Shown here piece by piece: positions 9,924-25,441 of a DNA stretch of 58,163 nucleotides. Location: positions 1-58,163 of IMG/VR virus record IMGVR_UViG_3300032236_000551. One strand, 5' to 3'. The stretch comes from a virus (Duplodnaviria; Caudoviricetes). The translations under genes and the position numbers were made by a program. How positions within the stretch are numbered: position 1 is the first letter of the stretch; every line of letters starts with the position of its first letter. The notes under the pieces were generated by a model. The model was not told the origin of the DNA and searched no databases. It worked only from the letters and a program-made list of their open reading frames with translations.

Positions 9924-12900
9924 TTACATTCCTAACTTTGCTTTTAATTCTTCGATTTGTTTTTGCTGTTCTTTAATTGCTTCAACCAACAATGGAACTA
10001 AACGCTCGTAGTGGATAGTTAAATATTGTTCATCAATTGGGGCTGGAACAACAACTTGCGGAAGAACTGCCTGAACCTGCTGAGCAGATAAACCGACTTC
10101 TTCTTTAGTTCCATCATATCCCAATGCCTGAGCAGTTTCGTTTGCAGTATAGTGAAAACCATCGAGAGAAAGAACTTTCTCAAGAGCATTCTCAATATTA
10201 CCAGAACGAGTTTTAAGTCTTTCGTCTGAGTAGTAAGAAGTGATTGTTGCAATCGCACGGATCTCACCAGCAGTAGTAGATGCTGCAGTACCAACACCGA
10301 TAGAGTTAAATTGGTAATCACCAGTTGTACCAGTATGAGGTGTGGTTCCAGAAGAAGCAGCAGTCAATCGACCTTGTGCATCAACAGTAATACTTGCGTA
10401 TGTATAAGAACCAGCAGTAACAGCAGTATTGGCAAGAGCAATAGTAACTGCGCTAGAGCCATTATATGAAGTTCCAGATAAACCAGTACCAATTGTTAAT
10501 GCATTTAAGTTACTACCTAACGAAACACCAGAAATAGTAGAGTTAGATAGTTTTGAATTGGCAATAGAACCAGCCAACATAGTATTAGTAACAGTTGCAC
10601 TATCACCAGTAGTAACGATAGTACCAGTTGTAGCTGGCATAGTAAGAACAGTGCCAGTACCAGCAGTTGCAGCAGGAATTAACTGAACAGAACCAGAAGT
10701 AGATCCTGGGAATGTTACACTAGTAATACCAGTTAATGCCAAGTTAGCAGAAGCACGACTTAATGTTACTGCAGTAGTACCAATGTAATTAGTATCAGAT
10801 TGATAAGCTACTGTTCCACCAGCACCAAAGGCAACTGAAGAAGAATCAGTTCCAGTAAATGTTAGTGTATTAGAAACAGTCGCTGTTTTACCATTGGCAA
10901 TTGTTAAAGTGCCAGTGCTTGAACTAATCGTTAATCCATTGATAGATGTTGCAGTTGCAGCACCAAGAGTTGGAGTTACGAGAGTAGGACTATTGGAGAA
11001 AACTACTGATCCAGAACCAGTTTCATCTGTAAGAGCTGCAGCAAGCTGAGCAGAGGTAGTAGTTAATGTATTGTTTGCTAAGTTGATAGTCTTATTAGTA
11101 AGAGTATCAGTAGTTGCTTTACCAACTAAAGTATCAGTTGCAGCTGGTAGTGTTAATGTATTTGATCCAGCAATCGCAGTTGCTTGAACAGCAATAGAAC
11201 CTGAAGTAGAACCACTAAATGTAGCACTAGTGGTAATAGTTGGAGTAGTAATAGTTGGTGAAGTATCAAGAACAACTTTACCAGAACCAGTTTTATCGGT
11301 TAATTGTGTTCCGTTAATTTTGAACACATTACCAGAACCAGCAGTATCAAAAGTTTTATTAGTAAGAGTATCAGTAGTTGCTTTACCAACTAAAGTATCA
11401 GTTGCCAAAGGTAGTGTTACAGTATTAGAACCAGAGTTGGTTAAAATTGTAGCAATCTTTGGAGTAGTCAGAGTCTTATTAGTAAGAGTATCTGTTGTAT
11501 CACGACCAACTAAAGTATCAGTTGCTGCTGGTAGTGTTAATGTTCCAGAAGCAGCTGCAGCTGGTTGAACTAAAGTAGTACCAGAAGAAGATCCAGCAAA
11601 TGTGAACCCAGCACCTTTAAACTTACCGTATGTTCCAGAGAACACACCACCTGTTTCAGTACCATCTACATAAAACTCTATTTGTTGAGAGTCATTACCC
11701 AACAACAATGCAGCATTTTTGTCTGAAGTTTTATAGTAGTGGAAACGAAGACCGATGTCTTTACCATCATCAGATGTTAATGTACCACCATTTGTATAAT
11801 GTAGTTCTAAGATTGAGTCTGCATAAGAAGTATTTGCAGAGTTAGCTGTGATTGTTGTACCATTAACTGTTAAGTTTCCAGTAACAACAGCATTGTTATT
11901 GATTGTAGTTGTACCAGTTGAAGCACCGATAGAAACTGCAGTAGCAGCGCCACCAATATTAACTATTGTTGAATTTGTATTAACAATGTTAGCAGTACCT
12001 GCAGAAGTAGTAATACTACCACCATTAACAGCTAAGTTTCCTGTATTAGTTTGATCGCCAGTAACTGCCAATGTTCCAGCAATGCTAGCATTATCACCAA
12101 CATAAAGTTTCTTGGCAATACCAGCACCACCATCAACACGGAGAGCACCAGTAGAAGTGCTTGATGAATCGCCAGTTGTTTTAATATAGAACTGACCAGT
12201 GCTGTGGATAAAACGCATCTTTTCATTTGCGCTTAAGAAACCACCAGTTGCAAATAAAATATCGTTTGTAGTTCCTGCGCCACCAGTGGCAAGAACCATA
12301 TTTCCTGCTAATCCAGTTCCAGTTTTAGATAGAACAAAGAAATAACCATCGTTCTTACCAGTAATAGTATAGTTACTATCGCTGAAGTTAGAACCAGTCA
12401 TACCCATGTCAGCCCAACCACCAGTGTCGTCGCCATTGTCACCATAAGCAACATAGTCGGCAGAGCCAGTATTAGTTGAGTTTAATAAACCGATTTGAGT
12501 ATAAGCAGAACCAGAATTTTTAGCAACAATAATTGGAGCAGTTAAACCCAATGCATAAGCACCAGAACCAACATATAATGAACCAGCAGCTTGGATATTT
12601 TTAGCAACACCAAGACCACCAGCAAGAACTAAACCACCATTATTGGTAGTAGTAGATTCTGTTGCATTATTAATTGTTACAGTTCCAGAAGCAGCACCCA
12701 ACGAAACTGTAGTAGCTGCACCACCAATATTAAGAGTAGTTGCTACTGTATTAAATAGGTTTTGAGTCGTGTTAGAACCAACAATAGTTCCAGTTCTTTC
12801 TAACAAACGAGAATAATTCCAACCACCAATTTTAGTTGATGCTGTATTTGTAGCATCAGCAGCATAAAATTCTAGTTCATCATTAGAAGCACCTGGAGAT

Positions 12901-15224
12901 GTTTCAGGAATAATATATGTTAAACCATCAACAGATTTAACACCACCTAAAGAACCCCAAGCTGAATCTGCATAACCTTCGAAAGTATGAAGGTCAGTAT
13001 TATAACGCATTTGACCAGTAGCAGCAGTTGGTCGCTGAGAAGTTGTACCTACTGGAACTTGGATAGACTTAACGCTATTAAATACTGTTTGTGCATTATT
13101 AACAGTTAATGTTCCAGTAGAAGCACCGATAGCAATAGTAGTTGCAGCACCAAAAGCATTAACAGTAGTAGCATTGGTATTTACAATATTAAATGTAGTA
13201 GACCCAGAATCAACTGTTAAATCTCCACCTTTAATCTGCACATCACCATCAACTGTTAAATTGTGTTTAATTTCAGCATCATAACCAATAGTGGTAGTTC
13301 CGCTAGAAGTAGAACCGATATTAGTTGTAGTAGCTGCACCACCAAGATTAATAGTAGTGGCAGTTGTATTAAACAAATTCTGAGTAGTATTATAACCAAC
13401 AACAGTTCCTGGATTTACAGTTAATGTAGCAGAACCTGTAGCACCTAATGCTACAGCTGTTGCTGAATCACCGATAGTGATTGATGTTTGTCCATCAGCA
13501 AATAATTTTGTTGCTTCAAGAACTTTAGTGTTATTAATTTTAAAAGTTTTTGTAGAAGCGATATTCCAATGTTCGCTTGAAGTCCAATTAGAATTTGCAT
13601 TGTCCCAGATAATAGTTTTATCTGTATCACCTTTAAGAGTAATACCACCACCATCTGCAGTTGTATTTGTAGGAGTGGCAACTTTACCAAGTTCAATATT
13701 TTTATCATCAACTGTAACAGTAGTTGAGTGAACAGTAGTAGTTGTTCCATTTACAGTTAAATTTCCTGTAATAACTGTATTGGCATTATTGATTGTTAAT
13801 GTTCCAGTAGAAGCACCAATAGAAATTGTAGTGGCTGCACCGAAAGCATTGACAGTAGTAGCGTTTGTATTTGCAAAAGTAAATGTAGTGTTTGGAGTTG
13901 TTACTACACCAGCATTTAAATTGATTGTTCCATAAAGCGGAGTGATCGCTGTAGCCAAAGTAAATGTTAAATCATTTGTTCCATCAGATCCACCCAAAGA
14001 AGAACCCGATAATGTTACAGTATCTCCAACAATATATCCAGATCCAACATTACCGCTACTGTATGTAACAGTAGTATTGCCAGTTTGAGTAACTGCAGTT
14101 ACAGTTCCAGCAACAGGAGTTGTTCCACCAGTAACAGTATATGTGATAGTATTTGCATCTACGATTGAAGTAACAACACAAGATGATGGTGATCCGCCAT
14201 ACAAATAACCAACACTATGGGTAGCAGTAATTGGTGCACCAACAACAAATCCAGCAGTAGATGTTAATCCTGTTAAAGTTGCTGTCCATGGACCAGATCC
14301 ACTAACAGCAGTAATAGTTCCAACTGTAGCATTACCACCAACAAAATTCGCTGCATAGTATGCACCCGAACCAGTTTTAACTACATTAAATTTGGCACTA
14401 GATCCATAACCTGAACTAGATTTTTGAGAAACATTACTATATGTTGACGCAGAAGTTGTCGATACCCCAGTTGGGTATGCAAAAGTTGTGCTGGAAGAAA
14501 TAGCACCAGAGGTATTATTACCAATAGTGATAGAAGTTCCAGAACCAAATAATGTTGGAGTTGTTGGAGATTTAAAGAAATTTGTTGCGCCAATTGTAGA
14601 ATCAATTGCAGTTAAACCATTAATCGCAGAGGCAGTTGTACCAACAGTAACGGCAGTACTACCGATAGTAATATCAGAAGTAACCCATGTTGGAGCAACT
14701 CCTGCTCCAGCAGATTGTAACACATAACCAGTAGTACCAGCAGTAATAAATCCTGTACTATTAGCGTCAATTTGATATAACAACTGACCAGCAGATCCAG
14801 AAGCAATGTTACTTGCTGTTACCGCAGTAGTTGCAGTACCAACTGTTAATGATGATTGAGATAACCAAATTGGTGTTCCACTACCAGCTGAAGATAGAAC
14901 CTGTCCAGATGAACCAGCTGAAGTTAAAGCAATACCAGTACTATTAGAATAAGCAATGGCACCAGCTGTCGCAGTTAATGAAGAATTGGTACCACCATAT
15001 CCGAGAGGAATATTATTTCCGTTCCAAGTAGAACCAGAACCAAATGTTTTATTTTGAAAAGTTTGCGAACCAGTAAGAGTTGGAACCGCATTACCACCTG
15101 GAGTTACACCATCGTGAACTCTAAGGTTTTTATTATCGGTATCAACTGTGATCTCTCCCAACGCTCCAGTGAACGAATCGTTTTGAGTAGCAGTTCCTCT
15201 TCTAAATTGTACTTGTGTGGACAT
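9924..15224 (-). CDS. long tail/neck fibre with Mtd-N-like N-terminus and C-terminal peptidase S74 intramolecular chaperone
   Basis: N-term QVQFRRGT...FTGALGEITVDTD..LRVHDG; Thr/Gly/Ser-rich repetitive body; C-term YYSDERLK...GLSAQQVQAVLP...YERLVPLLVEAIKE coiled coil. Confidence 0.88.
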   Translation of the reverse strand: MSTQVQFRRGTATQNDSFTGALGEITVDTDNKNLRVHDGVTPGGNAVPTLTGSQTFQNKTFGSGSTWNGNNIPLGYGGTNSSLTATAGAIAYSNSTGIALTSAGSSGQVLSSAGSGTPIWLSQSSLTVGTATTAVTASNIASGSAGQLLYQIDANSTGFITAGTTGYVLQSAGAGVAPTWVTSDITIGSTAVTVGTTASAINGLTAIDSTIGATNFFKSPTTPTLFGSGTSITIGNNTSGAISSSTTFAYPTGVSTTSASTYSNVSQKSSSGYGSSAKFNVVKTGSGAYYAANFVGGNATVGTITAVSGSGPWTATLTGLTSTAGFVVGAPITATHSVGYLYGGSPSSCVVTSIVDANTITYTVTGGTTPVAGTVTAVTQTGNTTVTYSSGNVGSGYIVGDTVTLSGSSLGGSDGTNDLTFTLATAITPLYGTINLNAGVVTTPNTTFTFANTNATTVNAFGAATTISIGASTGTLTINNANTVITGNLTVNGTTTTVHSTTVTVDDKNIELGKVATPTNTTADGGGITLKGDTDKTIIWDNANSNWTSSEHWNIASTKTFKINNTKVLEATKLFADGQTSITIGDSATAVALGATGSATLTVNPGTVVGYNTTQNLFNTTATTINLGGAATTTNIGSTSSGTTTIGYDAEIKHNLTVDGDVQIKGGDLTVDSGSTTFNIVNTNATTVNAFGAATTIAIGASTGTLTVNNAQTVFNSVKSIQVPVGTTSQRPTAATGQMRYNTDLHTFEGYADSAWGSLGGVKSVDGLTYIIPETSPGASNDELEFYAADATNTASTKIGGWNYSRLLERTGTIVGSNTTQNLFNTVATTLNIGGAATTVSLGAASGTVTINNATESTTTNNGGLVLAGGLGVAKNIQAAGSLYVGSGAYALGLTAPIIVAKNSGSAYTQIGLLNSTNTGSADYVAYGDNGDDTGGWADMGMTGSNFSDSNYTITGKNDGYFFVLSKTGTGLAGNMVLATGGAGTTNDILFATGGFLSANEKMRFIHSTGQFYIKTTGDSSSTSTGALRVDGGAGIAKKLYVGDNASIAGTLAVTGDQTNTGNLAVNGGSITTSAGTANIVNTNSTIVNIGGAATAVSIGASTGTTTINNNAVVTGNLTVNGTTITANSANTSYADSILELHYTNGGTLTSDDGKDIGLRFHYYKTSDKNAALLLGNDSQQIEFYVDGTETGGVFSGTYGKFKGAGFTFAGSSSGTTLVQPAAAASGTLTLPAATDTLVGRDTTDTLTNKTLTTPKIATILTNSGSNTVTLPLATDTLVGKATTDTLTNKTFDTAGSGNVFKINGTQLTDKTGSGKVVLDTSPTITTPTITTSATFSGSTSGSIAVQATAIAGSNTLTLPAATDTLVGKATTDTLTNKTINLANNTLTTTSAQLAAALTDETGSGSVVFSNSPTLVTPTLGAATATSINGLTISSSTGTLTIANGKTATVSNTLTFTGTDSSSVAFGAGGTVAYQSDTNYIGTTAVTLSRASANLALTGITSVTFPGSTSGSVQLIPAATAGTGTVLTMPATTGTIVTTGDSATVTNTMLAGSIANSKLSNSTISGVSLGSNLNALTIGTGLSGTSYNGSSAVTIALANTAVTAGSYTYASITVDAQGRLTAASSGTTPHTGTTGDYQFNSIGVGTAASTTAGEIRAIATITSYYSDERLKTRSGNIENALEKVLSLDGFHYTANETAQALGYDGTKEEVGLSAQQVQAVLPQVVVPAPIDEQYLTIHYERLVPLLVEAIKEQQKQIEELKAKLGM
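11085..11545. repeat. in-frame coding repeats LP(A/L)ATDTLVG(K/R)(A/D)TTDTLTNKT (3 copies) in the fibre
   Basis: Near-identical DNA blocks ttattagtaagagtatc...ccaactaaagtatcagttgc at ~11092, ~11356 and ~11476. Confidence 0.85.
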
Positions 15225-15244
15225 TTTTTTCCTCTAATTTTATA

Positions 15245-15251
15245 TATTTAT
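15245..15251 (-). promoter_or_regulatory. T4-like late promoter (ATAAATA) for the 1766-aa fibre
   Basis: CATAAATA overlapping the upstream stop codon, before AGAGG RBS and ATG 15224. Confidence 0.5.
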
Positions 15252-18142
15252 GCCTGCGCTTCTGACCAAAATAAGTTTAAATTCACATTGGCAGTATCAG
15301 GACTTAAATTTGAAATAACTACTGCTAACACATCAGGACCATCAGGGAAATTACTATATCCACCAATTGGAGAATTTCCTAGTTCTTTCAACTGTGATAA
15401 GTCAATAGAAGCGAAGCCTCCTGGTTGACCCAATGTTGAAAAGATTTGTTCGCCTGGAAGCGCAGCTGTTGCGTTGCTTGTTGAAATTTGAGCGAAGGAA
15501 GGTTGCGAACCCAACGATGCTGTATTAACAGAACTCCATGTTAAATCTTTGGCATCAATATTTCCTGGATTCAAAATTCCATACACCTGAACAGATTTAT
15601 CAGATTGAATCTGTAACTGTTGTAACAACATTTGAGATTTATTAATTAACTCACGAACTCCAGAGTCACCAGTAATAGAGTCGGAAACTGAAGGAGCCAA
15701 TCTTAAAAAGAATGCAGTATATGTTTGGTTGGCAGTAACTTGATTATTTGTTGAAGCAAAGTTAAAGTAGTATCCACGGTCAGCATCAAACTTACCATCC
15801 ATAATATATGAAGAACCCCAGTGAGTAATAACAGGGGAAGCAGTTACGCTTACCAAACGAACAGCATTAAATCCATTACCGACAGAGTGAACTGCTGCAG
15901 ATGAACCAGTAAATGTTCTGTTTTGTCCACTGGCGAAGAAAGAATATGATGCACCACGAGTGCAACCTGTTAGCGAGTTGCTAGTTAAATCTGTTCCAGT
16001 AAAGTTTATTAATTCACCTTCGCAAATAACTGTACCACCAGTTTCTGGGAATCTTGAAACATCATGTAAATATAATGTCGTATCTGAGTTAGATGCTGAC
16101 TGAACTAAACGATCTGCAACTACATCATTAATTGCTTGGTAACGAACAACCATGTTACCAGAACGCATGTAAGCAGCATCGTTTTTATTGTTTTGTGGCA
16201 TACGATGAGCGAGAACCATGTTACCATCTGGACCACGGCACATAAAGTCAATAAAACCAGCACCATACCAAGAGAAAGAAATACCCATCATCTGCATTTT
16301 GTTCAGATTAATGTTATATCCAGATAAACCAGAACCATCTAATTTATCCACATTAAACTGAGATTGTGGATATCTTTCCTCTAATACTTTTGCAATTTTA
16401 ATAGAAGAAGCGTTTACAGAACCACGAAACTCTGGGTTAATTGTCATTGTGGTATCATTAGTAATTGAGTTTACTTTATATGTTTGCCCTTTAATAACAA
16501 TGTTATCTCCAGATTTTAACTGTTGAGTAAAACGAGTTGAAGCACCAGTTACAGCCTGTGAACCAGAATTTACTGTAATAAATCCTGACAATTGATATGT
16601 TCCTGAGCGACGAACAGCCCATAGTTGAGATCCATCATATTCCCAGAACAATCCGTTTTGGTCATCGAATGGACCAACTCTAACTGCAGCGCCATGCCAG
16701 TGAGCAAGAGTAACACGAGGAAGATCAGTAAGAACAGCAGACGCAGAACCGAGAGTAGAAGCTGCAGTTACAGTAAATGAAACTTCGCTGATAACTGCTA
16801 CCACACCATATGTTCCATTATATCCTGAAGTAACAATACCAGATAGGATAACTGTTGCTCCTGCTTGAAGACCATGTTCATACTCAGTTGTTACTGTAAT
16901 TGTTGATCCTGCAGAAGTTCCGCTTGCACTAATTTGATCCATGTTTGAAATTGGATTAAACAATACACCAGATGTCCAAAGAATACCTTTACCTGATTGG
17001 TATCGCATGTATTTTTTAGTTTGTCTTAATACTGATGCACCGTATGCAGGAGTATTCGTTCCTAATTGAACACCTCCGTCAAATGGTCTATGAGCAACGA
17101 ACGAATCAGAACGAGTATAGACAGAAGCAGTTAATCCAGAATTTGAAACTGCACCACCAGTTCGAGCAGTAAAAGTAAAAGTAGTTGGAGACGGAACTGT
17201 TTCAGCATAAAAGTCACCAGTAACTAAATTGTGATTTGTTCCATTTGAAGTTGCAATAGTAACAATTGGGGTTCCTGGAGTAAATCCATGAGCAGCAGAA
17301 GTTGTTACTGTTATAGTAGAGGGACTACCAGCATTTGATGTTACAGAATAAACTGGAATTGAGGCACCAGTATAAAATCCACCCCTACGGCAATATGTGC
17401 TACCAGTAAATAAAGATAAGGATGAAGTTCCAACAACACCTTTAGCATAGTAAGTAAATTGAGTTGTTAGTGGTGTACTTGCAACAACAAATGAACCTTC
17501 AGCACGAGGATAATTTGGAGTATTGCCTAAACCATAAACAATTACTGGTTGACCAGTAGTCACATTATGCGGTGCTGATGTTGTAACAGTAATTAAAGAA
17601 GGAGATGCTCCATCAGTTGTTACTGAAGTAACAAATAAATCTAGTCCTGGTTTTTCATAAATCCCAGGAATATTTAAAATATCTGAATATGACAACCATT
17701 TAGTTGGTTGCAATCCATATTCAAAGTCAGCATCAATTAATGACTGCGGTTCACCAACACGCATGCGTTCAATAGCATCAACACCAAAAGCATAAGGTCT
17801 AACCACATTACCAATATTGTCTGGCGCATCAGCATAAACAGCAACAGTATCAGACGAAGAATATATTGAAGTATCTGATAAAAATGTTACAGTTGTTACA
17901 CCAATTTGGTCTGAAGTTTGAGTTGGACCATTAACTTGAATTGGTTTGAATGTTGTGTCAGTTGCGTCGTAGGAAATTGTTCCATTCTTGGTTGGATCGC
18001 CAAGAGTATACATGCTAGTTTGATGTGTTTTGTTTTGAACAATCAATAACTGCGTTAAACTGATTTTTCCAGGGATCTTAAGTGTACCATTTCCCGCAGT
18101 TCCTGGGGTAAAAATATACTTTTCAACTAATCTTCTTGCCAT
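15248..18142 (-). CDS. large virion structural / fibre-associated protein
   Basis: 964 aa beta-rich; PQSLIDADFEYGLQPTKW; three ITVTT..HG repeats; RQTKKYMRYQSGKG, GPFDDQNGLFWE and FSWYGAG motifs of the type seen in T4-like structural proteins. Confidence 0.75.
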   Translation of the reverse strand: MARRLVEKYIFTPGTAGNGTLKIPGKISLTQLLIVQNKTHQTSMYTLGDPTKNGTISYDATDTTFKPIQVNGPTQTSDQIGVTTVTFLSDTSIYSSSDTVAVYADAPDNIGNVVRPYAFGVDAIERMRVGEPQSLIDADFEYGLQPTKWLSYSDILNIPGIYEKPGLDLFVTSVTTDGASPSLITVTTSAPHNVTTGQPVIVYGLGNTPNYPRAEGSFVVASTPLTTQFTYYAKGVVGTSSLSLFTGSTYCRRGGFYTGASIPVYSVTSNAGSPSTITVTTSAAHGFTPGTPIVTIATSNGTNHNLVTGDFYAETVPSPTTFTFTARTGGAVSNSGLTASVYTRSDSFVAHRPFDGGVQLGTNTPAYGASVLRQTKKYMRYQSGKGILWTSGVLFNPISNMDQISASGTSAGSTITVTTEYEHGLQAGATVILSGIVTSGYNGTYGVVAVISEVSFTVTAASTLGSASAVLTDLPRVTLAHWHGAAVRVGPFDDQNGLFWEYDGSQLWAVRRSGTYQLSGFITVNSGSQAVTGASTRFTQQLKSGDNIVIKGQTYKVNSITNDTTMTINPEFRGSVNASSIKIAKVLEERYPQSQFNVDKLDGSGLSGYNINLNKMQMMGISFSWYGAGFIDFMCRGPDGNMVLAHRMPQNNKNDAAYMRSGNMVVRYQAINDVVADRLVQSASNSDTTLYLHDVSRFPETGGTVICEGELINFTGTDLTSNSLTGCTRGASYSFFASGQNRTFTGSSAAVHSVGNGFNAVRLVSVTASPVITHWGSSYIMDGKFDADRGYYFNFASTNNQVTANQTYTAFFLRLAPSVSDSITGDSGVRELINKSQMLLQQLQIQSDKSVQVYGILNPGNIDAKDLTWSSVNTASLGSQPSFAQISTSNATAALPGEQIFSTLGQPGGFASIDLSQLKELGNSPIGGYSNFPDGPDVLAVVISNLSPDTANVNLNLFWSEAQA

Positions 18143-18784: not shown

Positions 18785-18789
18785 TATAA

Positions 18790-18849: not shown

Positions 18850-18855
18850 ATTTAG
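18849..18855 (-). promoter_or_regulatory. T4-like late promoter (CTAAATA)
   Basis: CTAAATA 5 nt after the upstream stop, at the head of the palindromic leader. Confidence 0.6.
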
Positions 18856-18860
18856 CATTA

Positions 18861-19547
18861 TTAATAGATGAGTTTTACTTGACCGCTAGTAACTTCATTG
18901 ATGTTTGTTCCAGCTGAGCCAGTCCATCCTAGTGCTGCAGATGGAACTGTAAAGTTGCCAGTGTAAATTTGATTACCAACTGTCCAACGGAACGAGTTAA
19001 TGTATCCACCGAAAGCAGTTTGTGTTCCACCAGCTGTAGTTTCTTCACCAATAACAAGAGTGCCACCGCTAACATCTACGATAGTTCCAGCGAACGAATT
19101 AAATTGAACACCATCAACAAACATATTTGTTGAAGTGCCATCAGACGCAAACGCAAAGTGATGCCATTGATTTGTTGTTGGTTTGCTGAATGTTCCAGCA
19201 ACACCATTATTCATCCACCAATACATTGTGCTACCTTCGATACTAATAGCAATCTTAGTTGCTGGATATGATCCAATAGAGAATAATCTTGGGAATGGAT
19301 TACTGTCAGTTTGATAGAAGAATCCTTCAACGCACCAAGGAGAACCATTAGGAACTGCCATGCCATTATTATCAACTAATGCAGATGCTCCATTATTGAC
19401 TCCATCGAATGACCAGCTTGGACCAGATCCGCCAAATGGATCAGTTGCTACAGTTGTTGGAGCAGTTAGACCACTACTACCACCACCTCCGCCACCTGGA
19501 TGTTGGAAACCTGCGATTAGTGTTCCTGGACCGAATTTAATTGTCAT
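18861..19547 (-). CDS. LamG / concanavalin A-like lectin-domain virion protein
   Basis: SWSFDG, WCVEGFFY, NQWHHFAF...MFVDG, FGGYINSFRWT.G..YTGNFTVP: LamG-like beta-sandwich pattern. Confidence 0.8.
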   Translation of the reverse strand: MTIKFGPGTLIAGFQHPGGGGGGSSGLTAPTTVATDPFGGSGPSWSFDGVNNGASALVDNNGMAVPNGSPWCVEGFFYQTDSNPFPRLFSIGSYPATKIAISIEGSTMYWWMNNGVAGTFSKPTTNQWHHFAFASDGTSTNMFVDGVQFNSFAGTIVDVSGGTLVIGEETTAGGTQTAFGGYINSFRWTVGNQIYTGNFTVPSAALGWTGSAGTNINEVTSGQVKLIY

Positions 19548-19559
19548 TGTTTTCTCTCT

Positions 19560-20333
19560 TTATGCTGCCCAAATATTAGTAAAGTCAACACCGCCAAAAT
19601 TGATGATTACATTTGTTTGATCGTCAAAATTTCCTGTATATTGTATACTGATAGTATCATTAATGACATCGCTACCAGTATCATTCTTAGCATACCAAAC
19701 CTCGCAAGTTTGAAAGCGACCAGCTCCACCATTTCCTGCATCGTTGTAATATGACTTAGAAGATTTTTTAGTCCATGTTAAACCAGAAGATGAAGTGACT
19801 GAAACGATATTTCCATTAGAGTAGTCATGTCCTTCAACACCCATACATAAAACACCAAACTCAGTATTGTTTAAATTGTAACTAGAAAGAGATGATATGG
19901 AACTATAATCAGTGCCGAATGAATGATATGAACCAACTACAACAGGAGGAACTATACCAATTCCATTTAATACATGAATAACTGATACTGATCTACCGTT
20001 CAGATTATTGTTTATGGTAGAAGTTGCATTTGTAACTGCCGATGGATTTTCAATTGTAGATGCCCAAATATATTCCCACCAATTTGCGCCATTGTTTTGC
20101 GCAACTTCTTGTCCTGTCCAACCATTGATATATCCATCAGTTGAACCAGCACTAGTATTTGAGGTTACAAAAGCAATAGAAGTTGAATACGCAGGAGCAG
20201 ACCAAGTTAATGAAGGTAAACCTGCTCCACCATCATTAGTACCATCAGTGACTGCAAAATATGTTGGTGCAGTTCCGTACTGAGGAATCCCAGATGGTGC
20301 ACCTACTTGAAATCCACTAATCTTAATAGTCAT
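19560..20333 (-). CDS. hypothetical beta-rich fibre-associated protein
   Basis: 257 aa, Ser/Thr/Gly/Asn-rich with aromatic residues, inside the fibre cluster; N-term MTIKISGFQVG. Confidence 0.65.
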   Translation of the reverse strand: MTIKISGFQVGAPSGIPQYGTAPTYFAVTDGTNDGGAGLPSLTWSAPAYSTSIAFVTSNTSAGSTDGYINGWTGQEVAQNNGANWWEYIWASTIENPSAVTNATSTINNNLNGRSVSVIHVLNGIGIVPPVVVGSYHSFGTDYSSISSLSSYNLNNTEFGVLCMGVEGHDYSNGNIVSVTSSSGLTWTKKSSKSYYNDAGNGGAGRFQTCEVWYAKNDTGSDVINDTISIQYTGNFDDQTNVIINFGGVDFTNIWAA

Positions 20334-20443
20334 TATTTGTTCTCACTTTTTAATTGGGCAACAAATTCTTTGGCTTGTTGAATTTTCTCTTGACTGGCTG
20401 CAACATGCTCTTGCATTTTTGCTTTAATTTCTTCTTGTGTCAT
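20333..20443 (-). CDS. 36-aa helical micro-protein not in the ORF track
   Basis: MTQEEIKAKMQEHVAASQEKIQQAKEFVAQLKSENK; starts 1 nt after the upstream TAA and its TAA overlaps the next ATG (TAATG), exactly filling the gap. Confidence 0.7.
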   Translation of the reverse strand: MTQEEIKAKMQEHVAASQEKIQQAKEFVAQLKSENK

Positions 20444-20444
20444 T

Positions 20445-20882
20445 TTAACCCCAATCGACTAATGTTAATGCAGTTGCTGGCCAATTCCAAGTTCCAGGAT
20501 ACACGCTGTACCCATTAAATGTTCCAGTGCCAAGAGGAATTAATACTGAATATTCCCAGTTTCCTGTTGGTAGCAGAACAAACGCTGTATTTGGAGAATG
20601 ATCAGTACTACCAACACCCCAGTTACCATCAAACGAAACATAACTTGTTGGTGGACCTGAAAGACTATTAATAAAATCTAATTGTTCTGAATTTAACTGT
20701 AATAAAACAACTGGTTCTCCATAACCATCAGGTTGGATAAATCCACTAGCAGTTAAAATACTAGGATCAATCCAATCAACTACTTGTTCTTTTTGGAAAT
20801 GTAATAAGCGTGGAGCAGCATGAACTATCACTCCACCGCTTATTGTCGTACCACCACTAAATGTAATATTTGGTGCAGTCAT
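20445..20882 (-). CDS. hypothetical fibre-associated protein
   Basis: 145 aa with AGGA RBS; N-term ITFSGGTTISGGV. Confidence 0.65.
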   Translation of the reverse strand: MTAPNITFSGGTTISGGVIVHAAPRLLHFQKEQVVDWIDPSILTASGFIQPDGYGEPVVLLQLNSEQLDFINSLSGPPTSYVSFDGNWGVGSTDHSPNTAFVLLPTGNWEYSVLIPLGTGTFNGYSVYPGTWNWPATALTLVDWG

Positions 20883-20892
20883 TATTTAATCC

Positions 20893-23800
20893 TTAGTATG
20901 TTCCACCATCAATATTGAATCCATCTAGATTGCTTGTATCTGCGCCAGCACCAACTAAATTAGAACCAACATATACTTTCTTGGCAACTGACAAACCACC
21001 TGATAAAACAACCGAAGCAGTTCCAAGAGCTGATGCTTCAGTAGCATCAGTAAATGTTACTAGATTGTTAGCAGCAAGAGTTGTAAACTTACCAGAACTA
21101 CGAGTAGTAGAACCGATTGGTGTATCATCAACAGTACCACCAGAGATAGTTAGGTCATTAGCAACATAGGTATCTGCAATCGCAGTACCTTGCCAAACAC
21201 CAGTAGTAATAGTACCAAGAGTTGTGATAGATGATTGACCAGCATAAGTTGATGCAATATCAACAGTATGAGTATTAACAGTAATACGATCAGCAGTTCC
21301 ACCAACAGTTAATGTACCAGAATCATAAGTTAAACCATCACCAGCAAGTGAAGATTTTAATCTTAGGCTGTCGCTGTTAATTTCAATACCACCATTGGCA
21401 TCAACATTAACTGCAAGAGTATAACCAGACTTAGATAAACCATCACCAGCAATTAGTGTACCAGATGTAGAGAACAATGTCCAGTTAAGAGCATCAGTTC
21501 CTAGTACTGGTTCGCCTTTGTTAGTAAGAACGAAACCAGTGTTAAGGTTTACATCACCATCTTCAACGAAAGTAAACGCACCACCAGTAACTTCTCCAGC
21601 GAGCGGAGTTGTTAAATCATTAGCGAGATTGTCGAAGTCAGTAGCACGAGTCCAAGCACCACTAGCAACAACATAGATACCGTTATTTTTGGCTAAATCT
21701 TGATCTTTAACAAGAACACGATCGCCAGTAACAGCCATTACTGTATCGATAAGTTGTTCGCCAGAAAGAGTGATGTTTTCAGTAGTTGCTAAACGAACAG
21801 ATGCTTTAACATCTAAACCAGAACGAGCAGCATCAACATAGTATTTGGTTGCTGCATCATTGTCGTCAGTTGGTTCTGCAACATGTTTAATCTGCGCATT
21901 AGAAACAGAAACATGACCAGCACCGATTGGTTCCAATACAACATCTGCGTCAGTACCAACATCAGTTGAAACAATAGTGCTTCCATAAATCTCAATATTA
22001 GTTGAGTTAAATGTAACTTCTTTAGTACTTTCATTGTATGTTAGATACGAAGCGCCAGAATTTACTTGACGAATCGGATCGATGAATAAACCAGCCTGAT
22101 CTGGATTAATACCAGTACCATCGGCAGTAGCAGTTGCTTGAAGAACAATCGAATTATCATGTTGGCTATATTCAGCAGCATGAGCACCGATAGCAATAGC
22201 ATTAACACCTTGACCAGATGTTAAACCATTCGCAGTATGGTGACCGATTGCGATCGCATAACCACTTTGATTCAAACGACCAGCTAAACGACCGATTGCA
22301 ACTGCTTTTTGTCCTTGGTATTGATCACCAGCCCAGCGACCGATGGCGATAGCGGAGAAATTTTGGTTAGTATTACCAGCATCTTCACCGATGGCGATAG
22401 CAGTTAATTGTTGATTTAAGTAACCAGCATTATTACCAATGGCAACTGCATTTTGTTGTTGACTAGTATTACCAGCATTAACACCGATCGCAACTGCATT
22501 AGTACCTTGTGAAGTATTACCAGATCCAGCACCAATAGCAACTGCGCTACTCTGTTGATTTGATTCACCAGCCTGAGCACCGATAGCAACTGCGTAGCTA
22601 CCTTGGTTTAGATAACCTGCACCACCAACTGAAGAGTTTGGTGAAGAACCGATAGCGATAGCATCAGAACCTTGACCAGAATTACCAGCACGATTACCCA
22701 TGGCAATCGCATTGTTACCTTGGCTAGTTGTACCAGCACGAGAACCGATAGCGATACCATCCCAGCTTTGTCCTGTTTGAGTGCCATCTTGATAACCGAT
22801 TGCAATTCGTTGTGAAGAACCAGTTTCTTGAACACCAAAACCAAACAATATAGAATTGTTACCAGTGTCAAGAAGATGTGCACCATTTGGTAATTGTAGA
22901 TATGGAGTACCGCTGTTAGATTTGAATTGCCATTCGTAAGTATCTTGGGCAGAAATTCTAACATCGCCATTATAGCTGTCGATTAATAAATCGTTGGTTT
23001 GCCATTCGATTAAACCAATTTCTGTACCACTGATATTATTACTATCGTAGAACTGAAGACCTTTATTTGGTAATGTTAAATATCCATCACCTTTGAATAC
23101 TAAATTTTTCTCAGTACCATTAGAAGAAGCAAGGATAACATCACCAGTAGTATCATTGGTTTCAACAACACCTGGAATTACTAAGTGACCATCAGAATTT
23201 CTGAAAGTGATAGTACCATAATCATTCTGTTGAACAATATCATTATTGTTAGTGCGCAGAATAACTTTACCATCTCGTTTTGCAAAAAGAGCAATATTAT
23301 CAGCACCATCGTAATATCCACCACTGTTACCGCCAATGTCGATATATGAATCACCACCATCGTAGTTACCAAGAGTTAAACCAGCGTTACCAGTGTTCCA
23401 AAGGTTAATTGCACTTTGGTTATCCCAGTTACCAAACTGTAGCGAAGCATTATCAGTGTTAGTATTTGGACTAAAGATAAAGACATTATTGTTTGCAGCA
23501 GAAATCTTAGAATAAGAAGTATACTGTGATCCAGGATTTGCTGAGTTTGGTAATGTTAGAGTACCATCTAAAGCAAAGTGCCAGTATTGAGCAAGACTAG
23601 AACCATTCCATGCAGCGTTTTTAATCCAAACACCATCATGCTGTGCGTCAACTTGGCTATATGCAGAAACATCATAGTCATGCCATCTTAAAGATGAACG
23701 ACCAGCAGTCGCATCGGCAGAAGTATTTTTAGTTTGTAATAGTAAGTAATTACCATCTGTTACTGGAGAGATTGCTTCTTGACCGCTGTTCCATGTCCAG

Positions 23801-24813
23801 AATTTGATAGCATCATCGCCACCATTCCATGCTAGTTGAGCAGCAGTACCTTCGTTTGATGAACCTAATCCACCAAACAATAAAGTGTCAGTGTTTAATG
23901 TAGCAGTTCCAGTTCCATTTAAATGTAGAATTTCTACATTGTTGCTGTAAAGAGATAGGATGCCGTCTGAAAGACTGAACATACCAGTATCATAACCAGT
24001 ATCGTCTTTAAAGCTGTAACCAGTTGTACCAGTACCAGTTGGATTTCCGTTAGCAGCAAGATAAGCATCAGAACTAACATCGGTAATACCGTAAAGGTTA
24101 CCACCAACATACAAGTTACCTTGAATCGCTGCACCACCAGCAACTTTTAATGCACCAGTTGTACCATCAGAAGTAGTTGCAGTAGTTGTCTTAATCTCAA
24201 GACCATCAGTAGTAACAGAAACTACATTGGTTGATGATGAATAAAAATTAATGTTACCAGTGTCTAATGCAGTTACATAGGTATTGGTATCAGGAGATCT
24301 AACACCACCGAGTGATGCCCAGTGAGTGCCATCATAACCTTCAAAAGAAGTTAAGTCTGTATTGAAACGGATCGCACCAGAAACTGCAGGTGCTTGCTGT
24401 AAAGAAGTTCCTTTTGGAATTACTAACGCATTTGTTCCACTAATCTTAACATAACCATCACCATTAGGTGTTAGAAGAATGTTACCATCAGTATCTGTTG
24501 ATGATAATGTATTGCCAGTTAGTTTTAAATTGCTAACATACAATTCATTAATCTTTTTATCAGCATCAACAATAATAGCATTGCTTGCTGTTAATGTGCC
24601 AGGAGTTGCTCCAAGCAAATCGGTAAAATATTTACCACCGATAACAATGTGGTTCGCAGCATTACCAGCAGTTTCCGTGCCCATACCAATGTATAGACGA
24701 TCGCCTCCATTTGAGCCATTGTCTGCTAATGCTGAATACGCTAACTCACCAGCACCCAGTGTTCCTGGATTTCCTGATACCGAGCTGCGTTTAATTCGGA
24801 TGATTGATGCCAT
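20893..24813 (-). CDS. tail fibre / adhesin with YadA-head-like repeats
   Basis: N-term IIRIKRS...GELAY; 13 (A/I)xA(I/M)G repeats; DAATKYYVD, LDVKASVRLATT..ITLSG, GDRVLVKDQ...NGIYV fibre motifs; C-term IDGGTY. Confidence 0.85.
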   Translation of the reverse strand: MASIIRIKRSSVSGNPGTLGAGELAYSALADNGSNGGDRLYIGMGTETAGNAANHIVIGGKYFTDLLGATPGTLTASNAIIVDADKKINELYVSNLKLTGNTLSSTDTDGNILLTPNGDGYVKISGTNALVIPKGTSLQQAPAVSGAIRFNTDLTSFEGYDGTHWASLGGVRSPDTNTYVTALDTGNINFYSSSTNVVSVTTDGLEIKTTTATTSDGTTGALKVAGGAAIQGNLYVGGNLYGITDVSSDAYLAANGNPTGTGTTGYSFKDDTGYDTGMFSLSDGILSLYSNNVEILHLNGTGTATLNTDTLLFGGLGSSNEGTAAQLAWNGGDDAIKFWTWNSGQEAISPVTDGNYLLLQTKNTSADATAGRSSLRWHDYDVSAYSQVDAQHDGVWIKNAAWNGSSLAQYWHFALDGTLTLPNSANPGSQYTSYSKISAANNNVFIFSPNTNTDNASLQFGNWDNQSAINLWNTGNAGLTLGNYDGGDSYIDIGGNSGGYYDGADNIALFAKRDGKVILRTNNNDIVQQNDYGTITFRNSDGHLVIPGVVETNDTTGDVILASSNGTEKNLVFKGDGYLTLPNKGLQFYDSNNISGTEIGLIEWQTNDLLIDSYNGDVRISAQDTYEWQFKSNSGTPYLQLPNGAHLLDTGNNSILFGFGVQETGSSQRIAIGYQDGTQTGQSWDGIAIGSRAGTTSQGNNAIAMGNRAGNSGQGSDAIAIGSSPNSSVGGAGYLNQGSYAVAIGAQAGESNQQSSAVAIGAGSGNTSQGTNAVAIGVNAGNTSQQQNAVAIGNNAGYLNQQLTAIAIGEDAGNTNQNFSAIAIGRWAGDQYQGQKAVAIGRLAGRLNQSGYAIAIGHHTANGLTSGQGVNAIAIGAHAAEYSQHDNSIVLQATATADGTGINPDQAGLFIDPIRQVNSGASYLTYNESTKEVTFNSTNIEIYGSTIVSTDVGTDADVVLEPIGAGHVSVSNAQIKHVAEPTDDNDAATKYYVDAARSGLDVKASVRLATTENITLSGEQLIDTVMAVTGDRVLVKDQDLAKNNGIYVVASGAWTRATDFDNLANDLTTPLAGEVTGGAFTFVEDGDVNLNTGFVLTNKGEPVLGTDALNWTLFSTSGTLIAGDGLSKSGYTLAVNVDANGGIEINSDSLRLKSSLAGDGLTYDSGTLTVGGTADRITVNTHTVDIASTYAGQSSITTLGTITTGVWQGTAIADTYVANDLTISGGTVDDTPIGSTTRSSGKFTTLAANNLVTFTDATEASALGTASVVLSGGLSVAKKVYVGSNLVGAGADTSNLDGFNIDGGTY
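22150..22810. repeat. ~16-aa coding repeats (AxAIGxxAGxxxQxx), beta-roll type
   Basis: 13 units counted from QRIAIG to NAIAIG, mostly 48-nt period. Confidence 0.85.
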
Positions 24814-24828
24814 TTTTATTCTTCTCCG

Positions 24829-25098
24829 TTAAAATTCTCCACCTTCCATAATCTGGAGATCCAGATTTCTGGTGGCAGTCCATCTACTTGTGTTTGATTT
24901 GTATACTAATACCGAACCATTTTCTTTACCCGATGCATCAACATCGTCTAGATTTCCCAGCGGAACCTGCCCACCTGGAATACCCTGTGGTCCTCGTTGC
25001 CCACGAATACCAACTGCTGGTACTACTGGGATCGACGGAACATCAATTGATGCATTAATATTTGGGTTCGATAATACTGTTGCTGTTATATCTGCCAT
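24829..25098 (-). CDS. small fibre adaptor with mini collagen-like segment
   Basis: GIRGQRGPQGIPG (G-X-Y), LGNLDDVD...GSVLVY...W, C-term IMEGGEF. Confidence 0.75.
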   Translation of the reverse strand: MADITATVLSNPNINASIDVPSIPVVPAVGIRGQRGPQGIPGGQVPLGNLDDVDASGKENGSVLVYKSNTSRWTATRNLDLQIMEGGEF

Positions 25099-25099
25099 G

Positions 25100-25441
25100 T
25101 TAAGTCTTTGTAATTTCTGGCGTTAGGATAACAAGACCTTCCAACGCACGAATCTTACTAGAGTCGGGTGCTGGTGAAGTCAACTCAATATCGTACAAGT
25201 ATCTACCTGCCTGGATATCAGTGGTGTCGCTAGGATCAAGTTTTAATTGCACCTGCCCAGCTGCTGCATCGTATATAGATGCTTGAAAATTTACTGCGGA
25301 AGACGATTGATATGATTTACGAAACTGGGATCTTACTGTAAAATCAGTCAAATCCATTGGTGTTCCGTCTTGATTTGTGAGCGAAATGATGCTACTAAAG
25401 GTAGTTCCTTGGTCGATCACTAAATTCGAAATTGTTGCCAT
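25100..25441 (-). CDS. Ig-like fibre-attachment protein (BppU-N-like)
   Basis: NLVIDQGTTF, DLTDFTVRSQFRKSY, GRYLYDIEL...RALEGLVILTPEIT pattern common in T4-like phages. Confidence 0.7.
   Translation of the reverse strand: MATISNLVIDQGTTFSSIISLTNQDGTPMDLTDFTVRSQFRKSYQSSSAVNFQASIYDAAAGQVQLKLDPSDTTDIQAGRYLYDIELTSPAPDSSKIRALEGLVILTPEITKT

Follow-up and report, generated by a model that had tools for sequence, protein, structure and literature searches.

The window analysed here is the whole 58,163 nt of the IMG/VR record IMGVR_UViG_3300032236_000551 (Duplodnaviria; Caudoviricetes), and the features listed below all lie on its minus strand. The open reading frames (ORFs), tag ends and N-terminal strings quoted in an earlier sequence-only reading of this DNA are all present on that strand.

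25500..25519, minus strand: intrinsic-terminator-like hairpin and T-run with an 8-pair stem, the strongest within 8500-26000, closing the upstream unit
25465..25472, minus strand: TATAAATA, a T4 late-promoter-like octamer just after the hairpin and T-run
25100..25441, minus strand: 113-aa Ig-like beta-sandwich protein, LtfC-like by profile and fold matches (phrog_3304)
24829..25098, minus strand: 89-aa adaptor with a variable N-half and an invariant C-half, ending in IMEGGEF
24832..24849, minus strand: C-terminal tag of the adaptor (the IMEGGEF end), of a variant type that pairs with 1306-type N-domains
20893..24813, minus strand: 1306-aa fibre segment 1, with a conserved N-domain (start MASIIRIKRS..GELAY) and a conserved C-end (NIDGGTY)
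24664..24813, minus strand: putative class 1 N-terminal docking domain of the 1306-aa protein (MASIIRIKRS..GELAYS..GGDRLYIG; alignments A3 and A6)
20896..20913, minus strand: C-terminal tag of the 1306-aa protein, IDGGTY, of the canonical type that pairs with 209/gp37-type N-domains
18861..20882, minus strand: three inserted genes (145, 257 and 228 aa) between the 1306-aa and 209-aa genes
18155..18784, minus strand: 209-aa connector (start MSNIVKLKRS..GELAL) with a gp37-N-type docking domain and a C-terminal module
18635..18784, minus strand: putative class 2 N-terminal docking domain of the 209-aa protein, homologous to the T4 gp37 N-terminus (phrog_35830)
18158..18346, minus strand: C-terminal module of the 209-aa protein, with three DLG-type repeats and a ..DY.[SG]Y[SA]IIFGF end, conserved in the family alignment
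15248..18142, minus strand: 964-aa virion structural protein (phrog_5838)
9924..15224, minus strand: 1766-aa fibre (start ..VQFRRGT..GEITV), with Mtd_N at nt 15102-15212 and Peptidase_S74 at nt 10050-10229
8909..9922, minus strand: gp13-like neck protein (head-tail adaptor Ad2; phrog_211, E 4.5e-40), the downstream border

The unit had been described as starting at its own promoter and as lying beside the neck genes. The second description is confirmed by the gp13-like gene, which comes directly after the 1766-aa gene in a border that is syntenic with S-CAM1, S-CAM7 and P-SSM2; the fibre operon adjoins gp13-gp15. As for the first, TATAAATA does lie 24 nt before the ATG of the 113-aa gene, but this octamer is one of three in the window, where 5.6 are expected, and because it is not enriched the argument for a promoter is one of position. 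The three inserted genes are found in some relatives only (all three in locus L006, two in L011), and the 228-aa product has a Laminin_G_3 / ConA-like lectin domain. Because these genes intervene, the statement that tagged proteins are encoded upstream of their sockets holds loosely for the 1306-aa/209-aa pair. A megablast search of the region against phage records gave zero matches, and no relatives of gp34, gp35 or gp38 were noticed in a general pass through the PHROGs annotations of the window.

The small protein at the start of the unit is Ig-like, as the sequence-only reading had stated, and its affiliation can be corrected to a more specific one. It matches phrog_3304 with E 8.6e-22 and Pfam LtfC with E 9.8e-5 (23.3 bits, under the cut-off of 27), and an hmmsearch of the PDB with its family profile A7 retrieved 7qg9_R (8.5e-6) and 8hqz_Q (1e-5). 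The top Foldseek matches of its AF2 model (pLDDT 88.6) are 8hqz_T (E 7.7e-9, TM 0.75) and 7qg9_L (E 9.6e-9, TM 0.71), and connector chains of Bas63 are weaker matches (E 1.5e-4 to 3.3e-4). We identify the 113-aa protein, by profile and modelled fold, as a homologue of the fibre-anchoring collar protein known as p132 in T5 and LtfC in DT57C. According to published work on these phages, the collar anchors the fibre N-termini, whose strands augment the Ig sheets of the collar (PMC10038345; PMC10713586). As in T5 and DT57C, the anchor gene here directly precedes the gene of the protein that it would hold, although that protein is a small adaptor instead of a long fibre. That the 113-aa protein forms a dodecameric ring and grips the N-termini of fibres through strand augmentation is putative, and the support for this is the adjacency of the adaptor gene: among 57 IMG/VR loci fetched with the 89-aa adaptor, 44 have an LtfC-like ORF of 110-115 aa just upstream. 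T5 differs in being a siphovirus whose collar encircles a tube-like ring of p140/TTMP at the tip of the tail, whereas the window virion would be contractile, and no p140/TTMP-like ring protein was identified in the window. Dodecameric Ig-like neck collars with whiskers are known from Bas63, Sf14, XM1 and podophage GP4, and Ig-like collar proteins that hold fibres are described for the neck of contractile-tailed phages (PMC12609058). Their likeness to the 113-aa protein is one of fold and position rather than of demonstrated sequence relation, and the whiskers of Bas63-type collars are dimers on a "rope", whereas trimeric tagged fibres are proposed here. A location of the 113-aa protein at the neck is our guess.

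The gene of the 89-aa adaptor is always flanked by the LtfC-like gene on one side and by the IRIKRS fibre gene on the other. In all 45 of the adaptor loci that keep a downstream ORF, this ORF starts with MA[SA]..[IV]KRS, and in 42 of the 45 it ends in a tag. The invariant C-half of the adaptor reads NGSVLVYK..W..LD.Q.MEGGEF. The variable N-half contains a collagen-like GxxGxx run in the window; the notion that this run is essential to the adaptor was dropped, as it is absent from most homologues. DC31 was the only record matched in a tblastn search with the 89-aa protein. No fused, longer relatives were present among 146 candidates, which is weak evidence against their existence, and a profile search recovered an adaptor-like N-terminus fused to the 1020-aa fibre of HTVC008M (E 4.7e-4).

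The middle of the 1306-aa protein is variable and contains 12 A[IV]A[IM]G repeats spaced 16 residues apart. Residues 964-1159 match phrog_2647 "head decoration", and the DC31 cassette is placed after head genes; on these grounds a head-decoration role of the cassette was considered; it is possible, but was dropped as an explanation. The 209-aa protein carries DLGLVTD, EDLGLISD and YDLS and ends in YSIIFGF. In 13 of 13 distinct proteins with the ..DY.[SG]Y[SA]IIFGF end, a 964-type ORF follows within 9-13 nt, which points to the DLG repeats and the YSIIFGF end as a module that is strictly coupled to the 964-aa protein. The DLG motifs had been read as ligands for the sockets, and this role found no support. 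An AF2 model of the 964-aa protein was unusable (8 sequences; pLDDT 39.9, pTM 0.25).

According to the sequence-only reading, the 1306-aa, 209-aa and 1766-aa proteins start with three related Mtd-N-like domains. The relationship between the first two stands (hhalign probability 96.5%, E 8e-10), but the Pfam family is confined to the third. The 1766-aa protein matches Mtd_N (PF18454) at residues 5-41 with E 4.6e-13 (49.3 bits versus a cut-off of 26.3), its first 70 residues alone reach 54.9 bits, and residues 1666-1725 near its C-terminus match the intramolecular chaperone Peptidase_S74 (PF13884; 44.1 bits versus a cut-off of 22). With the E limit set at 10, residues 1-70 of the 1306-aa and 209-aa proteins were left without a match in Pfam, and a single member of the 21 in the 209-type N-domain alignment matched Mtd_N, with E 0.018. 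The hhalign probability is 58.7% (E 9.5e-5) between the 209 and 1766 types and 2.3% between the 1306 and 1766 types. The 1766-aa protein shares its N-terminal domain with Mtd of Bordetella phage BPP-1, whereas the 209 type is only weakly similar to it. Mtd_N-type proteins have no consistent C-terminus upstream of them, and they occur in HTVC008M and S-CAM1, which are genomes without any tag. Among the three N-termini of the window, only that of the 1766-aa protein is Pfam Mtd_N, and it stands outside the tag system.

The relatives of the other two N-domains lie elsewhere. The class 2 profile A4 was derived solely from the window and from IMG/VR loci, with T-even sequences left out, and in a search of 1687 ORFs it matched residues 6-47 of gp37 of T4 (E 3.3e-10) and of CC31 (E 7.5e-14). 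CC31-type gp37 was also matched by tblastn, and the 209-aa N-domain matches phrog_35830, "long tail fiber protein distal subunit". The 1306-type profile A6 reaches CC31 gp37 with E 0.0036 and is otherwise linked to gp37 only through the 209 type. The N-domains of the 1306-aa and 209-aa proteins are thus relatives of one another and of the N-terminal stretch of T4 gp37, which is known to bind gp36. With a limit of E 1e-3, the class 2 family comprises no fewer than 18,293 cluster representatives, and in 149 of the best 150 the match begins at residue 1. The PDB copy searched contains no chain with the domain.

Tags at the C-terminus occur far beyond chance. In the related loci, 72 of 425 distinct ORFs end in [DEN][GSA]G.[FYW], whereas shuffling of the last 30 residues yields 0.155 on average and never more than 2. 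An N-motif ORF follows 64 of 71 distinct tagged ORFs, against a background of 97/582 ORFs, and is missing after the other seven; the motif patterns were written after inspection of the data, and the counts represent non-independent events because the compared loci are related gene clusters. A sample that starts from the sockets gives a similar picture. From 80 loci chosen by a 209-type N-domain, the removal of 5 without upstream room and 12 duplicates left 63 distinct upstream ORFs, of which 36 end in [DEN][GSA]G.[FYW]-COOH across many unrelated upstream contexts, 6 have near-tags and 21 have no tag. In approximately 11 of these 21 cases, the class 2 protein follows a fibre with an S74-type chaperone end. 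Moreover, of the 58 tags that precede class 2 domains 56 have the form [ILVFM]DGG[TSAV][FY], compared with 3 of the 58 that precede class 1 domains. The same chains are found in phages unrelated to one another, namely the siphovirus S-CBS2, the podovirus Vibrio 1.208.B, Ralstonia PY059YO380 and Limnohabitans DC31. The pairing of C-terminal (D/E)GGx(F/Y) tags with N-terminal IKRS..GEL domains is thus strongly supported by comparative genomics, and the co-occurrence across genomes that the sequence-only reading had put forward as a check came out strongly positive.

Seven complete phage genomes, together with the contig of the window, were also used to count tags against class 1 and class 2 N-domains, and the two numbers are equal in all eight. 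The ratio is 2:2 in P-SSM2, where the partner gene is 112 kb away, and likewise in DC31, P-HM2, Melnitz-1 and the window; it is 1:1 in S-CAM7, with the partner 95 kb away, and 0:0 in HTVC008M and S-CAM1. Vibrio phage 1.208.B has three tags versus two sockets.

The 2:2 count bears on the tree of fibres originally proposed for this locus, in which all three N-termini would be Mtd-N sockets, EGGEF, DGGTY and the internal DLG motifs would be their ligands, and the 209-aa protein would be a branch point for the 964-aa and 1766-aa fibres. In favour of the tree, tags are indeed found together with N-domains, the 209 and 1766 types are weakly related, the three DLG-type repeats are conserved in the 209-aa family, and branched fibre systems are described for other phages such as DT57C. 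However, the two tags of the window are matched by the class 1 and class 2 domains and none is left for the 1766-aa protein, Pfam Mtd_N does not recognise N-domains of the 1306 and 209 types, and Mtd_N-type proteins occur in the tagless HTVC008M and S-CAM1 and follow inconsistent C-termini. The partner with which the DLG module co-varies is the family of the 964-aa protein rather than Mtd_N proteins. We regard the tree as quite improbable: nothing points to branching, the count fits a linear fibre, and the 1766-aa protein is not supported as a tag socket. In branched receptor-binding systems, T4 gp10-like or other globular docking domains lie inside the carrier and give rise to the branches. 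The carrier here would instead provide a terminal hexapeptide-type tag, and a general Pfam scan of the proteins of the region listed no gp10-like/XD-type docking domain. The likeness to TSP1-4 of CBA120 (Ackermannviridae), to the Klebsiella anchor-branch systems and to LtfA-LtfB of DT57C, as far as these are described, is that of mutual assembly via conserved N-terminal modules.

A different arrangement would have each N-domain dock independently on a common hub, such as the baseplate, the neck or an LtfC-like ring, with the tags acting as caps or as chaperone or assembly signals and the co-occurrence reflecting a shared operon. The RBPseg paper presents N-terminal anchoring to the virion as a general rule for fibres, the 21 untagged cases among the 63 are consistent with such docking, and in P-HM2 and P-SSM2 the gene of the tagged fibre is followed by small genes for coiled-coil proteins. 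A shared operon does not account for equal counts when the genes are 95-112 kb apart, however, or for a tag subtype that tracks the subtype of the next N-domain. Fusions argue in the same direction. Among the top 150 class 2 proteins, five contain a second, internal copy of the domain, and in four of the five it is immediately preceded by tag-like residues (TIDG, TISG, YIDGN); in one, P0017, a 1306-type C-end is fused to the domain. Furthermore, small proteins that carry both an N-domain and a tag precede another N-domain protein in locus L026 (122 aa) and in the Vibrio phage (159 aa), and the homologous N-terminus of T4 gp37 is reported to bind gp36, not the baseplate (PMC3004832). Independent attachment is therefore unlikely in our view.

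The same review gives the gp36 trimer as the binding partner of the N-terminal part of gp37 (PMC3004832). The joint between tag and N-domain seems to be of the same kind: in both systems the partner gene lies directly upstream, its product ends in an acidic-x-Gly-x-aromatic C-terminus, and gene order is the order along the fibre. The gp36 ends (..QDFGYY in T4, ..QDFGTY in CC31) fit the tag pattern only if the second tag position may be F, so that the T-even tag is DFG(Y/T)Y rather than DGGx(F/Y). Unlike in T4, two such joints would follow one another along the fibre, each with its own matched subtype, and the chain would start at an LtfC-like anchor instead of gp34/gp9. As a whole, gp36 has no relationship with either the 1306-aa fibre or the 89-aa adaptor; a search with the adaptor profile A2 did not retrieve gp36, and beyond the last residues no relation between gp36 and the adaptor is detectable. 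We found no solved structure of the tag/N-domain joint and no paper on it, and a 2026 preprint models the gp37 N-domain region of T4 at low resolution only.

These differences raise the question of whether the likeness is limited to the gp37-type N-domain, with the tags being a separate marine invention whose partner is the LtfC-like anchor or some other protein. Only the last few residues are common to gp36 and the adaptor, the gp36 end requires the relaxed pattern, and the invariant C-half of the adaptor is longer than the tag and could bind something else. However, tags occur with class 2 N-domains in CC31, S-CBS2 and Vibrio, where no LtfC-like gene was detected, and S-CAM1 and HTVC008M have LtfC-like genes but neither tags nor class 1/2 domains. 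Tags therefore follow the sockets and not the anchor, and we consider a separate invention very improbable.

We believe that the region is best explained as a late operon of a T4-like marine myovirus that encodes one multi-segment jointed fibre and one separate fibre, and we hold this explanation, taken as a whole, to be reasonably probable. Its central element would be a linear chain of the 113-, 89-, 1306-, 209- and 964-aa proteins, each joined by its end to the next in the sequence of the genes. The model is based on homologies and gene order, on co-occurrence and fusions and on the matching of subtypes, and from it we infer physical binding, the trimeric state, the location on the virion and polarity. 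Because C-terminal tags go with the N-domain of the following fibre protein, the chain is ordered from the Ig-like anchor. The 113-aa p132/LtfC-like protein would anchor the chain to the virion, and the variable N-half of the adaptor would be inserted into it, as the lateral fibre protein LtfA (pb1) is into LtfC in T5/DT57C. The ..IDGGTY-COOH tag of the 1306-aa protein would join the gp37-N-type domain of the 209-aa connector, whose DLG/YSIIFGF module would hold the 964-aa protein, probably the distal element. Assembly order would equal gene order, and two tag subtypes matched to two socket subtypes would decide which segment follows which. The 1766-aa fibre, with its Mtd_N and S74 domains, would attach by another route, possibly at the neck. 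The tag daisy chain of the sequence-only reading is retained in this model, with its Ig-like start and its tags leading to the next N-domain, as co-occurrence, fusions and the gp36-gp37 comparison suggest, but its sockets are not Pfam Mtd_N: the 1306 and 209 types fail that model, and Mtd_N-type proteins are not tied to tags.

In a broader reading, which we offer tentatively as possible rather than probable, the joint may be a widespread and portable two-part connector of multi-segment fibres. It would consist of a hexapeptide-type tag (hydrophobic-D/E/N-G-G-x-F/Y-COOH) and an N-domain of approximately 45 residues on the next trimer, with the T4 joint as a diverged member. The subtypes would form an addressing code in which EGGEF, TGGQY and NGGxF go with IRIKRS-type domains and IDGGT(F/Y) goes with LKRS/gp37-type domains. 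If true, the code spans myo-, sipho- and podoviruses of cyanobacteria, SAR11, OM43, Vibrio, Ralstonia and enterobacteria. For marine T4-like phages, with their many large structural proteins, the tag/socket rule would predict fibre membership and order from sequence, even for genes approximately 100 kb apart as in P-SSM2 and S-CAM7, and would provide a concrete, testable model of the T4 gp36-gp37 joint. It would also allow better annotation of the "virion structural protein" class in metagenomes, and because the N-domain family has at least 18,293 representatives, the connector would lend itself to the exchange of receptor-binding segments among phages of laboratory bacteria.

The sequence-only reading held that three fibre proteins of this phage, of 1306, 209 and 1766 aa, begin with related Mtd-N-like domains, here called class 1, class 2 and class 3, respectively, which would act as sockets for short C-terminal tags of the (D/E)GGx(F/Y) type on the proteins encoded before them. 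The Mtd-N likeness applies to the third protein: Pfam Mtd_N is matched by the 1766-aa protein only (49.3 bits), and even with E allowed up to 10, Pfam gave nothing for the N-terminal ends of the other two. In profile-profile comparisons of alignments drawn from related loci, the 1306-type domain matched the 209-type (probability 96.5%, E 8e-10), the 209-type matched the 1766-type at 58.7% (E 9.5e-5), and the 1306-type reached the 1766-type at 2.3%. When 1.84 billion representatives were searched with the class 2 profile, 18,293 proteins matched at E up to 1e-3; the match begins at residue 1 in 149 of the best 150. No class 1 or class 2 domain was found among the PDB chains searched.

Gene order around the 89-aa protein, which we call the adaptor, was followed in 57 IMG/VR loci fetched with it. 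Twelve close relatives of this protein share a nearly invariant C-terminal half, running to ..LD.Q.MEGGEF, and a variable N-terminal half. An LtfC-like ORF of 110-115 aa lies immediately 5′ of the adaptor in 44/57 loci, and in 10 further loci the adaptor ORF was called too long by the simple ORF finder. The next ORF begins MA[SA]..[IV]KRS..GELAYS in all 45 adaptor loci that retain downstream DNA; these proteins measure 527-1300 aa, 42/45 end in ..[ILV]DGG[TS][YF], and the class 2 N-terminus is nearly always found on the protein encoded after them. The order anchor, adaptor, class 1, class 2 is shared by the isolates P-HM2, Melnitz and Limnohabitans phage DC31, and P-SSM2 has the same order, but without the adjoining anchor.

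The co-occurrence of tags and N-domains across phage genomes, which the sequence-only reading had named as a check, was borne out. With motif patterns written after the data were seen, and with counts that are not independent because the compared loci are mutually related, a tagged ORF is followed by an ORF with the N-motif in 64/71 distinct pairs (background, 97/582 ORFs), and 36/63 distinct ORFs upstream of a class 2 domain end in [DEN][GSA]G.[FYW]-COOH, on many unrelated preceding sequences. The latter sample began with 80 loci collected by the class 2 domain, of which 5 lacked upstream room and 12 were duplicates; the remaining upstream ORFs comprise 6 near-tags and 21 without a tag. The tag occurs on 72/425 ORFs of the class 2 loci, and 0.155 would be expected when the last 30 residues are shuffled. 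Exceptions to pairing are 21/63 and 7/71 pairs, the three genes that intervene in the window, and Vibrio phage 1.208.B, in which 3 tags face 2 sockets. Of the 21 untagged upstream ORFs (in the fetched loci L143-L222), about 11 are fibres with an S74-type chaperone end (..EQQKQIDELKSKL). Such a chaperone is normally cleaved from the fibre; therefore, the mature upstream C-terminus differs from the encoded one.

In a whole-genome scan, the numbers of tags and of class 1/2 domains were equal in 8 genomes or contigs: 2:2 in P-SSM2, DC31, P-HM2, Melnitz-1 and the window, 1:1 in S-CAM7, and 0:0 in HTVC008M and S-CAM1, both of which encode class 3 (Mtd_N) proteins. In P-SSM2 and S-CAM7, 112 kb and 95 kb, respectively, separate the class 2 gene from the gene with the tag, so operon structure alone does not account for this match. 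One extra pattern match in P-SSM2, the GGKY end of an 87-aa protein, looks like chance. The tags also differ by the class that they precede: [ILVFM]DGG[TSAV][FY] accounts for 56/58 distinct tags ahead of class 2 domains and only 3/58 ahead of class 1 domains, with 31 additional pairs having an unclassified next ORF. The other tags preceding class 1 domains are MEGGEF, VTGGQY, TDGGNF, LEGGHY, INGGTF and similar ends.

A second, internal class 2 copy occurs in 5 of the best 150 proteins, and in 4/5 of these fusions tag-like residues (..TIDG, ..TISG, ..YIDGN) immediately precede it. [quoted passage not shown] Equivalent chains of separate tagged and N-domain proteins are also found in unrelated phages: in the siphovirus S-CBS2 (..FSGGSF, then IRIKKR....IDGGTF, then LIKLRRS), in the podovirus Vibrio 1.208.B (..INGGVY and ..IDGGAF, followed by two class 2 proteins, the first of which ends ..IDGGSF) and in Ralstonia PY059YO380 (an Ig-like protein, a collagen-like 89-aa protein ending ..TDGGNF, IRIKRR....IDGGTF, then a class 2 protein). 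Homology, gene order, co-occurrence, subtype matching and fusions are matters of observation.

The window comes from a T4-like marine myovirus and carries its structural module, nearly all of it on the minus strand; every ORF and peptide quoted in the sequence-only reading is present in it. PHROGs and Pfam matches identified the neck genes gp13, gp14 and gp15 and several fibre genes, and ORF order, synteny with S-CAM1, P-HM2 and S-CAM7 and sequence inspection allow the portal, tail tube, sheath, terminase gp17, a VrlC-like 2262-aa protein and baseplate genes to be putatively assigned. Judged by the 964-aa protein, the nearest isolates are the Synechococcus phages S-CAM1 and S-CAM3 (44-45% identity); a nucleotide search with the region gave no match among phage records. 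The region 9924-25441 is flanked by fibre/baseplate genes on one side and gp13 (8909-9922) on the other, and the corresponding place in T4 holds gp9-gp12 and wac. Two features stand at the start of the unit:

25519-25500, minus strand: strong hairpin with T-run, preceding the start of the unit
25465-25472, minus strand: octamer TATAAATA, 24 nt ahead of the 113-aa ATG

The proposal that the unit has its own promoter agrees with the position of TATAAATA and not with its frequency; the octamer occurs 3 times in the window against 5.6 expected and is thus not enriched, so the late-promoter argument is one of position only.

The 113-aa protein at the head of the unit is, judged by sequence and predicted fold, a homologue of the T5 p132/DT57C LtfC collar protein. 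It is matched by phrog_3304 (8.6e-22), its family profile matches PDB 7qg9 and 8hqz at about 1e-5, and its AF2 model (pLDDT 88.6) returns the same two entries at the top of a Foldseek search (E about 1e-8, TM 0.71-0.75), followed by the BppU-type anchors of 80alpha and TP901-1. According to published accounts, the T5/DT57C collar has twelve copies with the N-terminal strands of the lateral fibres woven in (PMC10038345, PMC10713586), and neck whiskers of contractile-tailed phages such as Bas63 are held by Ig-like dodecameric collars (PMC12609058). This homology and these fibre- or whisker-holding collars make the "Ig anchor" well founded. In the P-SSM2 record, two LtfC-like genes (115 and 196 aa) lie on either side of a 198-aa gene (173637-175177), about 73 kb from the adaptor and tagged fibre; therefore, anchor and adaptor are not always neighbours.

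The DLG-type repeats of the 209-aa protein and its ..DY.[SG]Y[SA]IIFGF end are conserved together as a single C-terminal module, and a 964-type ORF (8 complete, 5 cut by the contig end) follows 9-13 nt after 13/13 distinct proteins with this end, one of which carries a class 3 N-terminus. This module and its linkage make the 209-aa protein look like a connector that would have a class 2 socket at its N-terminus and, at its C-terminus, the 964-specific module. The AF2 model of the 964-aa protein has pLDDT 39.9. The 1766-aa protein, which combines Mtd_N with an S74 chaperone, has no tag partner, its gene type is always immediately 5′ of gp13 in relatives, and we regard it as a fibre of its own. 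In the window, an insertion separates the tagged 1306-aa gene from the gene presumed to encode its partner:

18861-20882, minus strand: three inserted genes of 145, 257 and 228 aa

All three are present in the fetched locus L006, two in L011 and none in most relatives; the 228-aa protein has a Laminin_G_3 lectin-like domain (E 1.1e-10). Within the 76-nt gap 5′ of the 209-aa gene, a weak hairpin with a T-rich tail (18812-18827, minus) may be either an internal attenuator or fortuitous. In the 1306-aa protein, residues 686-876 (22186-22758, minus) hold twelve A[IV]A[IM]G motifs, mostly spaced by 16 residues, which matched nothing in Pfam at E up to 0.01 and which we take to be reminiscent of YadA-head-type repeats.

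Several neighbours of the region deserve record. A 79-aa Cys-rich protein (CxxC..CxxC; 25523-25762, minus; DUF6171 E 1e-3, phrog_13558 7e-14) is the last gene ahead of the operon's terminator. Just 5′ of that terminator, three tandem paralogues of 506, 512 and 510 aa (25767-30366, minus) share an N-terminus (..LGPEAI.LPAD.SANRP..GM.R.NT), an Ig-like middle and a glycine-rich C-terminal half matching Pfam ALK_LTK_GRD (E 4.1e-9 for the first). A 190-aa protein consisting almost entirely of a Peptidase_S74 chaperone domain (30366-30938, minus; 58.4 bits) and its neighbour, a 536-aa tail-collar-fibre-like protein (30964-32574, minus), have in common the N-terminal motif ..KGSPLT..E.D.NF.NLN, which may define one more docking class. 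A second recurrent C-terminal end, ..[AS]I[AI]LG(G) or ..LI[LI]AL.., which may be another terminal docking motif, is found on proteins encoded immediately 5′ of gp13, and class 2 fibres whose genes lie elsewhere carry it too (L014, L018, L034 and L064 with the 71-aa protein of Melnitz; the 617-aa protein of P-SSM2 and the 4168-aa protein of S-CAM7). The gp14-like neck protein (7991-8905, minus) has a C-terminal extension, residues about 187-271, that matches a repeat of very large virion structural, baseplate and fibre proteins (phrog_5342 and others), and the 727-aa sheath-like protein also shows a motif of similar form, G.GY...P.V.I.

That fibre segments are joined N-to-C in gene order is already known from T4. 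An explicit, portable, subtype-matched tag/socket rule, and its spread over phage morphotypes, were not found in print in the openly accessible article texts searched; in these, a literal search for the tag strings gave no phage paper among the matches listed. The passages of the RBPseg atlas that were consulted describe no such tag, and a 2026 T4 preprint models gp36-gp37 at low resolution only. In a tblastn search, the class 2 domain matched gp37 of T-even phages of the CC31 type, and the class 2 profile, which contains no T-even sequence, matches residues 6-47 of T4 gp37 (E 3.3e-10) and CC31 gp37 (7.5e-14). The protein encoded just 5′ of gp37, gp36, ends ..QDFGYY in T4 and ..QDFGTY in CC31, which matches the tag only if the second position is relaxed, a relaxation chosen post hoc. 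According to a review, trimeric gp36 attaches to the N-terminal region of gp37 (PMC3004832). Given the gp37 homology, the gp36 end and this attachment, the proposed tag/socket joint is most likely of the same kind as that of the T4 distal half-fibre.

The daisy chain of the sequence-only reading was to build a tree of receptor-binding fibres. The best reading of the sequences is a linear jointed fibre, which would run from the LtfC-like anchor through the adaptor, the 1306-aa segment and the 209-aa connector to the 964-aa distal protein; its binding, oligomeric state and location in the virion are what we infer. The chain would be held by two successive tag/N-domain joints of matched subtype, and the 1766-aa fibre would be attached independently of it.
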